NCBI GenBank assembly: GCA_035499005.1
Contig: DATJZQ010000013.1
Location: 12,504-76,503 of the forward strand
Direction of reading: 5' to 3'
Source: Burkholderiales bacterium
GTDB lineage: Bacteria; Pseudomonadota; Gammaproteobacteria; Burkholderiales; SHXO01
DNA length: 64,000 nt
Part shown: positions 41,790 through 46,734 of the stretch, piece by piece
Layout of the letters: each line of letters starts with the position of its first letter
How positions within the stretch are numbered: the first letter of the stretch is position 1
Position numbers and translations under genes: made by a program
Notes under the pieces: model-generated
The model's database searches: none
Told to the model about the DNA's origin: nothing
Seen by the model: the letters and a program-made list of their open reading frames with translations, nothing else

Positions 41790-42215
41790 ATGCACATCGT
41801 GAACTTCACTCCGTTTTCCGCGCTCATCGGCGGTGCCCTCATCGGGCTGGCTGCCGCCCTGTTGTGGTGGACGCTGGGGCGCATCGCCGGTGTCAGCACC
41901 ATCCTGGGGAACGCGCTGACCGAACGCGGATCCGACAGCGGCTGGCGCTTCGCGTTTCTGGCCGGTCTGCTGGCAGCGGGTCTCGGCGCTGTTCTCTTCT
42001 TCCCCGGGGCGGTTCATCTCGATCTCGCGGCTGGTGGCGGACAGCTGGTGGTCGCGGGCTTGCTGGTGGGAGTCGGTACGCAGATGGGCAGCGGATGCAC
42101 GAGTGGACACGGCGTATGCGGCATCGGACGGCTCTCCGCGCGCTCGATCGTGGCGACGCTGTCCTTCATGGTGAGCGGCATGCTCACTGTATCCGTCGTG
42201 AAGCATCTGCTATGA
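41790..42215 (+). CDS. YeeE/YedE-family membrane protein, half-size (N-terminal-type unit)
   Basis: 141 aa, 4 TM-like segments, conserved GSGCTSGHGVCG motif. Confidence 0.8.
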   Translation: MHIVNFTPFSALIGGALIGLAAALLWWTLGRIAGVSTILGNALTERGSDSGWRFAFLAGLLAAGLGAVLFFPGAVHLDLAAGGGQLVVAGLLVGVGTQMGSGCTSGHGVCGIGRLSARSIVATLSFMVSGMLTVSVVKHLL

Positions 42216-42655
42216 AACGCTGCGTCATCGCGTTTCTGAGCGGCCTCGTGTTCGGCATCGGACTGATCGTGTCGCAGATGTCCAACCCGGCCAAAGTGAT
42301 CGGGTTCCTCGACATCACGGGGAGCTGGGACCCAAGTCTGGCGCTGGTGATGGCGGGAGCCCTGGCGGTGTTCGGTACCGTCTACTGGTCGATCAGGGGG
42401 GCCGGAGCCCCGCTGATGGCGGAGCGGTTCGTAGCGCCGACCGAGACCAGGATCGACCGGCCTTTGCTCGCGGGGTCGCTGATGTTCGGAGTGGGCTGGG
42501 GACTGTCGGGCTTCTGCCCGGGGCCCGCGATCGTCAGCACCACCTTCGGTAACCCGCTTGTCTGGCTGTTCGTGGCGGGGATGATCGCGGGCATGCTCCT
42601 GTATCGCTTCCTCTCCGGACGGCGGGTGATGACCGGCGCGCCTCGCTCCGTGTGA
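42212..42655 (+). CDS. YeeE/YedE-family membrane protein, half-size (second unit)
   Basis: Starts MKRCVIAFLSGLVFG (ATG 42212, ATGA overlap with the preceding stop). 147 aa with the GWGLSGFCPGP motif. Confidence 0.8.
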   Translation: MKRCVIAFLSGLVFGIGLIVSQMSNPAKVIGFLDITGSWDPSLALVMAGALAVFGTVYWSIRGAGAPLMAERFVAPTETRIDRPLLAGSLMFGVGWGLSGFCPGPAIVSTTFGNPLVWLFVAGMIAGMLLYRFLSGRRVMTGAPRSV

Positions 42656-42772
42656 GCGCTTGCGTCCAGTCTAAGTCAGGCTACTTCTCGACTCTCTGAA
42701 TGTAAGCGCAGGTGGCAGAGAGAAGGGGCAGGTCCGTCCGGCCTCCTCTCGGTGGATTGTTTCAAGCTCGTC

Positions 42773-42793
42773 TTGTCAAACTCAATTTGATAA
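42773..42793. promoter_or_regulatory. Operator-like imperfect palindrome TTGTCAAA-N5-TTTGATAA upstream of the HTH-aminotransferase ORF
   Basis: The reverse complement of TTGTCAAA (42773-42780) is TTTGACAA, matching TTTGATAA (42786-42793) at 7/8. A third related half-site TTGTTTCAA sits at 42758-42766. All lie in a locally AT-rich 172-bp spacer, 35-70 nt before the ATG at 42828. Confidence 0.35.
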
Positions 42794-42827
42794 GGCAGAC
42801 TTTCATTTCTTCACCACCGAGTACCTC

Positions 42828-44342
42828 ATGAACTGCGCTGAGCGGCTCGTCACCCTGTTTGGGAGCCAGGCGGAGGTCGCCCGACGCTTTCGCGTCGATC
42901 GCGCGCTCGTCAGCAACTGGGTCAAGTCGGGCTACGTTCCCTCGCGCTGGGCCGTGGAGGTCGAGCGTCTCACCGATGGAGCGGTCGCAGCGGTGGAGGT
43001 CTTGAACGAAGCCAACGCGCGCAAGCCGATCAGACTCAAGTCGCGCGGCGAAGAAGACAGCCTTTTTGGACCCTCGCTAACGGGAAACGACACGATGAAC
43101 CCCTTTGTTCCAGCCCGAAGAATTCATTCTTTCCACCCGCCACAGCGCACTCTGATGGGTCCGGGCCCGTCCGAGATCAACCCGCGAGTCATGGCGGCGA
43201 TGAGCCTGCCCGCGATCGGTTACCTCGACCCGGTGTTCGTCGAGATGATGGAGGAGTTGAAAGCGCTGCTGCGCTACGCGTTCCAGACCAGGAACGCGCT
43301 CACCTTCCCGGTGTCGGGACCTGGCTCGGTGGGGATGGAGTACTGCTTCGTGAACCTCGTCGCGCCGGGCGACAAGGTCGTCGTCTGCCGCAACGGCGTA
43401 TTCGGCGGGCGCATGATCGAGAACGTCGAGCGCTGCGGCGCCGTGCCCGTGGTCGTGGAGGACGCGTGGGGCGAGCCCGTTGATCCGAACAAGCTCGAAG
43501 ACACGCTGAAGAAGAATCCGGATGTGCGCCTGGTCGCATTCGTCCACGCGGAAACATCGACCGGCGTGCAATCCGATGCCAAGACCCTGGTCGACACCGC
43601 GCACCGGCACAACGCGCTCACCATTGTGGACGCGGTCACCTCACTGGCCGGCACGCCGGTGCTGGTCGATGAGTGGAACGTGGACGCGATCTACTCGGCG
43701 AGCCAGAAATGCCTGTCGTGCACGCCGGGCCTGTCGCCGGTGTCGTTCAGCGATCGCGTGGTCGAATACGTGAAGTCGCGCAAGGACAAGATCCATAGCT
43801 GGTTCATGGACATGAATCTGCTGCTCGGCTACTGGGGCGCAACCACGCGCACCTATCATCACACCGCGCCGACGAACAGCTTGTACGCGCTGCACGAAGC
43901 GCTGCTGATCCTGAAAGAGGAGGGCATCGAGAACGCGTGGGCGCGCCACCAGCGCCATCACCTGGCGCTCAAGGCCGGCCTCGAGGCGATGGGGCTCAAG
44001 TACCTGGTCAAGGAGGGCGCACGCCTGCCGCAGATGAATGCCGTGCACGTGCCCGACGCCATCCAGGAGCGCGAGGCCGAGGTGCGCCGCACCCTGCTGA
44101 GCGAGTTCAATCTCGAAGTGGGCGCCGGTCTGGGCCCGCTCGCCGGAAAGATCTGGCGCGTGGGGATCATGGGCTATTCGTGCAAACCGGAAAACGTGAT
44201 GCTGTTTCTGTCGGCGCTGGGCTCAGTGCTGTCCGATATGGGCCTCCCGATCCACGTCGGCGAAGCGGAGGCAGCGGCCCATCAGGCTTACGCGCAGCTG
44301 CACACCAGAGCCGCGCAGCAGAAGAAGCGCATGGTGGCCTAG
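42828..44342 (+). CDS. Class-V aminotransferase (alanine-glyoxylate / serine-pyruvate type) with in-frame N-terminal Cro/YdaS-like HTH extension
   Basis: 504-aa uninterrupted ORF. Residues 1-60 (LFGSQAEVARRFRVDRALVSNWVKSGYVPSRWAVEVERLTDGAV) look like a YdaS/Cro HTH. Residues 90-504 (MNPFVPAR...LMGPGPSE...SASQKCLS) form a full-length class-V aminotransferase that could also initiate at ATG 43095. Confidence 0.75.
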   Translation: MNCAERLVTLFGSQAEVARRFRVDRALVSNWVKSGYVPSRWAVEVERLTDGAVAAVEVLNEANARKPIRLKSRGEEDSLFGPSLTGNDTMNPFVPARRIHSFHPPQRTLMGPGPSEINPRVMAAMSLPAIGYLDPVFVEMMEELKALLRYAFQTRNALTFPVSGPGSVGMEYCFVNLVAPGDKVVVCRNGVFGGRMIENVERCGAVPVVVEDAWGEPVDPNKLEDTLKKNPDVRLVAFVHAETSTGVQSDAKTLVDTAHRHNALTIVDAVTSLAGTPVLVDEWNVDAIYSASQKCLSCTPGLSPVSFSDRVVEYVKSRKDKIHSWFMDMNLLLGYWGATTRTYHHTAPTNSLYALHEALLILKEEGIENAWARHQRHHLALKAGLEAMGLKYLVKEGARLPQMNAVHVPDAIQEREAEVRRTLLSEFNLEVGAGLGPLAGKIWRVGIMGYSCKPENVMLFLSALGSVLSDMGLPIHVGEAEAAAHQAYAQLHTRAAQQKKRMVA

Positions 44343-45198: not shown

Positions 45199-46617
<1,419 letters not shown>

Positions 46618-46648
46618 CACGCCCTCCTTTCGGTTCCGAAAAAAGTTC

Positions 46649-46728
46649 GTGAGCGCCGTTGCAGGGAGAACCCCTGAGCCTGGCGGGGGCACTGGCATTC
46701 AGCCGCCCGTTGCAACGCTCCTCAGGGA
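46649..46728 (-). promoter_or_regulatory. SAH riboswitch (S-adenosylhomocysteine-responsive) in the ahcY leader
   Basis: Minus-strand RNA: CCUGAGGAGCGUUGCAACGGGCGG...CCCCGCCAGGCUCAGGGG...CAACGGCGCUCAC. Contains the conserved GAGGAGCGUUGCAAC / GCCAGGCUC / CAACGGCGCUCAC blocks and the P1, P2 and P4 pairings of the SAH element (Rfam RF01057), in the canonical position before ahcY. Confidence 0.8.
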
Positions 46729-46734
46729 ACAGAA

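Follow-up and report, generated by a model that had tools for sequence, protein, structure and literature searches.

A phage-type Cro/YdaS module fused to an AGXT-family aminotransferase in uncultured Burkholderiales: a candidate autoregulatory enzyme gene with a conserved internal start

The question raised by the locus described here is whether a DNA-binding domain and a metabolic enzyme that share one reading frame constitute a genuine gene and, if so, how such a gene might be expressed and controlled. The locus lies in a 64,000-nucleotide stretch of DNA, referred to below as the window, from a Burkholderiales bacterium (assembly GCA_035499005.1, contig DATJZQ010000013.1, positions 12,504 to 76,503), in which the plus-strand open reading frame (ORF) 42828–44342 had been predicted, from the sequence alone, to encode an uninterrupted fusion of a Cro/YdaS-like helix-turn-helix (HTH) to a class-V aminotransferase. 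The ORF was checked and found to start with ATG and to remain open over 504 codons up to its stop codon. Comparison with relatives indicated that this Cro–AGXT fusion is an ancient, fixed and functional gene fusion, and neither a local mutation nor an assembly error. The explanation favoured here, to which we give slightly better than even credence as a whole, is that a complete phage-derived Cro/YdaS protein was joined by loss of its stop codon to a downstream chromosomal gene of the AGXT family, and that the product may act as an autoregulating enzyme/repressor accompanied by a nested, enzyme-only isoform.

The reading frame and its two domains

Orthologous loci were taken as the best 80 of 589 related stretches in a scan holding one genome per GTDB species, and related proteins were sought in a space of 5.8 billion proteins. 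The 80 loci all came from metagenome-assembled genomes (MAGs) of uncultured Burkholderiales/Betaproteobacteria, with identities of 76–99%, and a cultured representative was absent among the at least 80 species-level genomes. The comparison of orthologues that had been proposed as a check returned the same fusion in every case: each of the 80 loci gave a single high-scoring segment pair beginning at residue 1, and neither a stop codon nor a frameshift was found at the junction between the HTH and the enzyme in any of them. More than 120 protein clusters with 78–100% identity to the fusion protein were recovered, nearly all of about 500–512 amino acids (aa) and carrying both PF15943 and PF00266. 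The exact protein has been recorded from other assemblies (P0001, 20 member sequences), and an independent MAG contig (L001) was 99% identical across the junction. The first start codon was ATG in 74 of 81 sequences, and the N-terminus MNCAERLV was kept across the family, whereas the translation upstream of the first ATG diverged.

The strength of selection was estimated for each segment of the gene as the ratio of nonsynonymous to synonymous substitution rates (dN/dS, Nei–Gojobori). Values of 0.09–0.13 were obtained for the HTH (aa 1–60), 0.08–0.16 for aa 61–75 and 0.08–0.13 for the enzyme part, with the highest values in the gene (0.21–0.28) confined to aa 76–89. Purifying selection acts on the HTH no less strongly than on the enzyme, with dN/dS of about 0.1, and since synonymous divergence (dS) exceeds 1 across the family, the fusion is old and its HTH both translated and selected. 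The coding-like GC content at third codon positions (GC3) noted for the HTH in the original prediction was confirmed by measurement, at 0.83 for the HTH, 0.86 for the aminotransferase and 0.83–0.85 for neighbouring genes.

These data bear on the simplest alternative, that the fusion is an artefact of sequencing or assembly, or a recent stop-codon loss, and that the real product is the enzyme translated from the ATG at 43095. Such a view could draw on the lack of a Shine-Dalgarno (SD) sequence at the first ATG and on the internal starts chosen by some gene callers (P0097 and P0119). Against it stand the open frame in 80 independent species-level genomes and in the protein clusters, which derive from different projects, the low dN/dS of the HTH, and linker indels that are all in frame. 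The artefact is refuted by these comparative data and is left with practically no probability; the local mutation or assembly error considered at the outset was ruled out by the 80 open frames and the HTH dN/dS. Database entries that resemble separate small "YdaS" proteins turned out to be fragments cut at a contig end, genes with a frameshift further on, or calls made from an internal start; all of them read through the junction. As candidates for split genes in relatives, P0142, P0286, P0288 and P0379, all on long contigs, were rejected, being truncated entries that read through the junction and break by frameshift only later, and P0097 and P0119 were rejected as internal-start calls. In the plasmids and chromids of cultured bacteria (n = 72,556), every match was limited to the enzyme part. 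Public annotation labels the protein "aminotransferase class V-fold PLP-dependent enzyme" (PLP, pyridoxal phosphate) and its fragments "YdaS family helix-turn-helix protein, partial".

The N-terminal Cro/YdaS-type DNA-binding module (aa 1–75, 42828–43052, plus strand) is defined by Pfam and structural matches, by its dN/dS and by stand-alone relatives. PF15943 (YdaS_toxin), whose gathering score is 30, matched aa 7–58 at 32.2 bits when the full sequence was searched and at 36.3 bits when only the N-terminus was; PF14549 (P22_Cro; gathering score 30.2) gave 28.7 and 32.8 bits in the same two settings. The Pfam check suggested with the prediction thus recovered both a YdaS/Cro HTH and Aminotran_5, and the HTH region, whose possible lack of homology had been named as a ground for refutation, scored as homologous. 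The module consists of five helices (aa 3–65) followed by a conserved basic tail, KPIRLKSR (aa 66–73). In the AlphaFold2 (AF2) model the helices span residues 3–11, 14–21, 25–34, 39–48 and 55–65, with a predicted local distance difference test score (pLDDT) of about 90 for aa 1–65. The closest solved structure by phmmer against the Protein Data Bank (PDB) was the Xfaso 1 prophage Cro (3bd1, E = 1e-5), to which Foldseek gave a target-normalised template modelling (TM) score of 0.86 and a root-mean-square deviation of 1.4 Å over 61 residues, with N15 Cro (TM 0.77), P22 Cro (TM 0.71) and YdaS following as further matches. With both domains above family thresholds, the Cro fold matched and the fusion present in all 80 loci, the chimera of a Cro/YdaS HTH and a class-V enzyme that had been claimed was borne out. 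Three further proteins, P0208 (1133 aa), P0214 (2454 aa) and P0232 (744 aa), contained 5–7 repeated matches to the Cro-like module; these multi-HTH repeat proteins are unrelated to the aminotransferase fusion.

The remainder of the protein (aa 90–504, 43095–44339, plus strand) is an AGXT-family aminotransferase of class V and fold-type I. Aminotran_5 (PF00266) matched aa 139–410 (E = 5e-21), NCBIfam profiles of AGXT type aligned with aa 108–497, and the best PDB matches were the Nostoc AGT 1vjo (E = 2e-99), the Bacillus subtilis PucG 3isl (E = 3e-85) and human AGXT (E = 9e-79), each aligned over about 370–390 residues. The claim of a complete aminotransferase beginning at the internal ATG at 43095 therefore held, both for the position and for full-length AGXT homology, and the PLP-lysine context SASQKCLS was found as described, with Lys294 encoded at 43707–43709. 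Residues K294, D268, Y343/T346 and R444 aligned with K209, D183, Y260/T263 and R360 of human AGT, which we take to be the catalytic residues of that enzyme, and were invariant in 46 family members. Since the catalytic residues are both aligned and invariant, the C-terminal part looks like an active enzyme and not like a degenerate sensor. When compared with the NCBIfam equivalogs (BhcA, PhnW and pyridoxamine-pyruvate transaminase), the enzyme part fell below all cut-offs, the best of them, BhcA, giving 212 bits against a cut-off of 650.

Origin of the fusion and the internal start

The segment between the two domains had been described as a linker of about 30 aa rich in Lys, Arg, Ser and Gly. 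This description stood for aa 76–89 (43053–43094, plus strand), which form a variable linker with low pLDDT, in which length differences are all in-frame indels of 1–3 codons; GC3 over 43008–43094 was 0.69, below that of the HTH and the enzyme. It did not stand for aa 61–75, which include the KPIRLKSR tail and are a conserved, Cro-like part that is also C-terminal in stand-alone relatives. These relatives were obtained in an exhaustive HMMER search with aa 1–89 against 1.84 billion cluster representatives, which returned one full-length fusion cluster (P0129) and fragments and, below about 45% identity, stand-alone proteins of 75–90 aa. What the stand-alone proteins have in common with the fusion is an xCxERL N-terminus, the HTH and a basic tail (KPxxxKxR), directly after which they end (P0167, P0169, P0178 and P0183), so aa 1–75 represent the whole of a former Cro-like protein. 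The residues that follow (aa 76–89) probably correspond to its former stop codon and to an intergenic spacer, now a flexible linker. The alternative raised in the original prediction, that a small regulator gene had lost its stop codon, is in this sense borne out as the evolutionary origin, the relatives of 75–85 aa ending at residue ~75. A phage source is indicated by P0167, which lies directly before a phage replication-initiation gene (phrog_16167, E = 4e-63), the classic Cro position, and by matches in a phage collection, which were to "transcriptional regulators" only. Upstream of a stand-alone phage relative (L081), scattered TTGTCA, TTGACA and TGTAAA elements were present without a clear equivalent of the palindrome described below.

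The seam of the fusion retains what looks like a second translation start. The in-frame codon for Met90 (43095–43097, plus strand) was ATG in 81 of 81 sequences despite variable flanks, the sole variant being Val, which was seen in fragments only. About 8 nt upstream, within codons Gly86–Asn87, stands an internal SD sequence (43082–43086, plus strand) that reads GGGAA in the window; most relatives have GGGAG, and the forms observed are GGGAG, GGGAA and GGAAA. Predicted pairing with the anti-Shine-Dalgarno sequence was strongest at the internal ATG, with a median of −6.8 kcal/mol and 98% of loci at or below −4, compared with a median of −3.0 kcal/mol (32% at or below −4) for other in-frame Met codons (Mann–Whitney p = 9e-31) and −1.7 kcal/mol (12% at or below −4) for the first ATG, where the window gave −2.5. 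The Gly codon embedded in the SD was GGG or GGA in 78 of 78 sequences, whereas over the rest of these genes the two account for 21% of Gly codons and GGC for 66%; such exclusive use is not explained by selection at the protein level. A distant non-fused homologue from S. meliloti (about 51% identity) starts at query residue ~99, within about 9 residues of the internal start, and the PDB homologues begin 8–27 residues before the start of their alignments, which argues that Met90 is the natural N-terminus of the enzyme.

Given the conserved internal SD and ATG, a 415-aa enzyme-only product from Met90 is probably still made, and the two isoforms from two ATGs that had been proposed are upheld as the likely mode of expression, the internal signals being conserved at the nucleotide level. 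A hidden promoter within the HTH coding part was not indicated, as a scan of synonymous-site entropy found no constraint over codons 1–75. The competing view is that the long fusion alone is made, as a bifunctional polypeptide of the PutA or BirA kind, with the internal ATG and SD persisting as a relic or through constraint on the protein. Selection along the whole long ORF agrees with this view, and Gly86 and Met90 may be structural residues of the aminotransferase N-terminal arm, aa 90–107 having a dN/dS of about 0.1. The codon bias of the embedded Gly exceeds what a protein-level constraint would explain, however, and the purine-rich next codon completes GGGAG or GGGAA at canonical SD spacing. 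In addition, the residues flanking the internal start are variable and carry indels, and the Val codon that alone substitutes for Met90, if GTG, would also be a start codon. Exclusive synthesis of the long form is for these reasons considered unlikely.

Promoter, palindrome and a possible circuit

The region before the first ATG is conserved in 79 of 81 loci as a block with the order TTGTCA, a 17-nt spacer and TGnTAnnnT, the last corresponding to an extended −10 element in which T23, A24, T28 and the TG at offsets 20–21 are conserved. In the window, the sigma-70-type −35 hexamer TTGTCA (42773–42778, plus strand), a sequence invariant in 76–79 of 79 anchored loci, is followed after 17 nt by a weak −10 hexamer, CAGACT (42796–42801, plus strand), and by a predicted SD-less 5' leader of about 20 nt (42808–42827, plus strand), with a start site placed by promoter geometry alone. 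A promoter scan called TTGTCA-17-TAGAAT in L015, L035 and L064, where the −10 ends 6–7 nt before the ATG, and made no call at the fusion promoter when applied to the window. From the −10 to the ATG there were 6–7 nt in 36 of 79 loci and 5–11 nt in 49 of 79, as against 26 nt in the window, and the first ATG lacked an SD in most loci. Such short spacing is the geometry expected of a leaderless mRNA, which would apply to roughly 45% of the species (the 36 loci). In eight loci (L030, L034, L041, L046, L048, L052, L061 and L075), the first ATG lies about 17–19 nt after the −10 and is preceded by an SD-like GAGAA, GGAGA or GGGAT, an arrangement of this subclade that is not leaderless. Different lineages seem to secure expression of the long form in different ways.

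Overlapping the −35 and the spacer is a 19-bp imperfect palindrome, TGTCAAAcTcAaTTTGATA (42774–42792), which constitutes a candidate operator. Its family consensus, TGTCAAAnTnAnTTTGwCA, was present in 79 of 81 loci, with the symmetric positions conserved, including the spacer positions T9 and A11. When 659 kb of flanks (about 10 kb per genome) and the window were scanned, 73 strict matches were found, all at most 130 nt upstream of the fusion gene; none was found elsewhere in the flanks, and the window holds one site, upstream of the fusion gene. A palindrome that overlaps the gene's own promoter is the arrangement expected of an autoregulated HTH protein, and sequence-specific binding to it is a candidate activity of the Cro/YdaS module. 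Two further features of the region were observed. In L033, the halves of the palindrome/promoter block (GCGTCAAACTCA ... TGTCATGCTCATGG) appear to be pushed apart by some 22 inserted nt at about 90 nt ahead of the gene start (4001), which would be a natural operator-disruption variant. A weakly conserved aTCAA at offsets −12 to −8 from the −35 (42761–42765 in the window, 0.4–0.8 bits per position) might represent a third element resembling a half-site, or else belong to an UP element.

Under the favoured explanation, transcription from a sigma-70 promoter would begin on the first ATG itself or slightly ahead of it, by a few nucleotides. The message would be leaderless in about 45% of the species, and in the window it would have a leader of about 20 nt that lacks an SD. 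The first ATG would direct low-level translation of the 504-aa long form, while the internal SD and Met90 would yield the 415-aa enzyme-only form, probably the commoner product. Because AGXT enzymes are obligate dimers, dimers of the long form would carry two Cro modules and may bind the 19-bp palindrome over their own −35 and spacer, so that the enzyme would repress its own synthesis. Mixed dimers of long and short forms would carry a single HTH, and the long:short ratio, possibly together with the ligand state of the enzyme, could tune repression. That two proteins are made, that the palindrome is bound and that the regulation is negative is what we infer from the sequence. An extension of this scheme, in which the short form titrates the long form into one-headed heterodimers, so that repression reads the proportion of long to short form and perhaps also the substrate or PLP state, is put forward tentatively and is more doubtful; if true, it would amount to a self-contained circuit of dosage and metabolite feedback across a large uncultured clade of Burkholderiales.

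A different role for the Cro module must also be weighed, namely that it is not autoregulatory, having other targets (phage operators in immunity or as decoys, or a distant regulon) or a role away from DNA, with the palindrome belonging to another factor. The closest relatives of the module are indeed phage Cro proteins, and the site scan extended over about 10 kb per genome. Nevertheless, the palindrome is found in nearly every locus and, within the stretches scanned, solely upstream of the fusion gene and over its promoter, and the recognition helix and the half-sites are both nearly invariant across the family, so that a role of the module elsewhere is judged improbable.

Several points weigh against autoregulation by a nested-isoform gene, the reading preferred here. 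Another regulator could be what binds the palindrome, and the near-invariance of half-sites and recognition helix leaves covariation uninformative. The window promoter is weak and was not called, and with the ATG 26 nt downstream of the −10 the leaderless argument is inapplicable to the window genome; the SD-like leaders of the subclade mean that the logic of expression appears to differ between lineages. In the full-length AF2 model the HTH was confident, whereas the enzyme part was poor (mean pLDDT 58.8, from a shallow alignment) and uninformative on the docking of the domains, so that the geometry of a dimer with two tethered HTHs is conjectural. Finally, the scores below all NCBIfam equivalog cut-offs leave the enzyme without a specific substrate assignment.

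Genomic setting and known systems

The fusion gene closes a conserved series of genes that runs methyltransferase(−) | SDR(+) – ttcA(+) – fusion(+), with ttcA upstream in 70 of the 80 loci. No phage genes were found at the SDR-ttcA-fusion locus, and in this setting it is therefore a core chromosomal gene; the Cro-like module sits here in an enzyme gene and not as a stand-alone protein of an immunity region. In loci with ttcA upstream, ttcA usually lies about 70–200 nt from the fusion gene, and in the window two ORFs for YeeE/YedE-like membrane proteins (41790–42655, plus strand) stand between them. The pair was confined to the window and the 99%-identical L001 and looks like a lineage-specific insertion.

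Downstream, no conserved partner was found, the neighbours varying among metF/ahcY, a Ser/Thr kinase, an adenylate-cyclase-like gene and metY. A convergent metF-ahcY-metK group was present in up to 16 loci, and metY (O-acetylhomoserine sulfhydrylase-like) in six. Neighbours from the methionine/S-adenosylmethionine (SAM) cycle were seen in L005, L010, L034, L035, L037, L064, L066, L067, L070 and others, and in L024 (+171 downstream), and their recurrence loosely suggests a connection with one-carbon (C1) or glycine-serine metabolism. In the window, the stop codon of the fusion (TAG, 44340–44342, plus strand) overlaps that of metF (TAG, 44339–44341, minus strand) within the CTAG at 44339–44342; the intergenic space is zero, and no terminator-like hairpin was found at the overlap. 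In other species, the distance to metF ranges from 16 nt up to about 3400 nt. An S-adenosylhomocysteine (SAH) riboswitch (RF01057, 63.2 bits against a gathering score of 37) was located at 46644–46729 (minus strand), upstream of ahcY; given its position, the mechanically called ORF 45199–46698 reaches too far in the 5' direction, and translation of ahcY probably begins at the Met of "MSAVLQ".

Enzyme-regulator chimeras, PutA, BirA and MocR/GabR among them, are textbook examples of metabolism coupled directly to transcription. The fusion is an independent invention of this kind from different parts, a phage Cro and a class-V aminotransferase with intact catalytic residues. At least 80 species have it as a fixed core gene, and databases label it as a mere "aminotransferase" or, in fragments, as "YdaS family protein". 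Its evolutionary seam (spacer, SD and start codon) has been kept, which makes it a clear natural example of a fusion that probably retains old and new modes of expression. If autoregulation by nested isoforms is true, the gene would be a compact circuit and a documented route for domesticating prophage regulators into host metabolism. It also serves as a warning for annotation, as gene callers mis-start or split the fusion gene, as in P0097, P0119 and the "partial YdaS" entries.

No description of a Cro/YdaS plus class-V aminotransferase architecture was found in the literature searched. The nearest architectural likeness is to the MocR/GabR/PdxR regulators, in which an N-terminal DNA-binding domain is likewise attached through a flexible linker to a dimeric PLP domain of fold-type I that presents two heads. 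Those regulators have a GntR winged helix, whereas the fusion has an all-alpha Cro/YdaS module; their PLP domain is of class I, whereas that of the fusion is of class V, retains its catalytic residues and is about 50% identical to bona fide enzymes. The fusion further differs in keeping an internal SD and ATG, and its origin is independent. Membership of MocR/GabR was considered and rejected, no GntR match being obtained and the HTH being of Cro/YdaS type, as was a MocR/GabR class-I effector domain, PF00155 giving a marginal, overlapping match of 21.8 bits and the nearest structures being AGXT and PucG. The difference from MocR/GabR asserted in the original prediction is thereby upheld.

PutA, BirA and NadR are bifunctional enzyme-repressors ("trigger enzymes") that, like the fusion, combine an active enzyme and a DNA-binding domain in one polypeptide and control their own or related genes, a regulation that is presumed here. 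To our knowledge, a nested enzyme-only isoform is not known for any of the three. The DNA-binding and enzyme families of the fusion also differ from theirs; BirA is mentioned in PMC5882156.

The second parallel, with genes encoding nested in-frame isoforms, lies in an internal in-frame start with its own SD that gives a protein without the N-terminal domain, a product that is predicted in the present case. Examples of such genes are those for the Tn5 transposase and its inhibitor, ClpB, IF2 and the long and short forms of CheA. The short form of the Tn5 protein lacks the DNA-binding N-terminus and mixes in oligomers with the long form. In the fusion, by contrast, the N-terminal part is an entire former gene, that of a phage Cro, and the short form would be a metabolic enzyme. 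General precedents for internal translation starts in bacteria are given by genome-wide surveys (bioRxiv 10.1101/520783) and a review (PMC13515050).

The module itself resembles the Cro proteins of Xfaso 1 (3bd1), N15 (6on0/2hin) and P22 (1rzs), as well as the E. coli prophage YdaS (8c7k), in its PF15943/PF14549 family membership and five-helix fold (TM 0.71–0.86), and shares with small Cro proteins a basic C-terminal tail; a palindromic candidate site of about 19 bp is also present. Phage Cro proteins are stand-alone products of about 70 aa encoded in an immunity region, whereas here the module is fused to an enzyme at a core chromosomal locus. The message of lambda cI transcribed from PRM is a leaderless regulator mRNA, and the fusion resembles it in those 36 of 79 loci in which the −10 ends 6–7 nt before the SD-less ATG of an HTH regulator. 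Unlike the cI message, the window copy has a predicted leader of about 20 nt, and the transcript would also carry an SD-led internal start. The fusion is thus an enzyme-regulator chimera assembled from new parts and with a preserved nested start, in a kind of chimera that is itself known.

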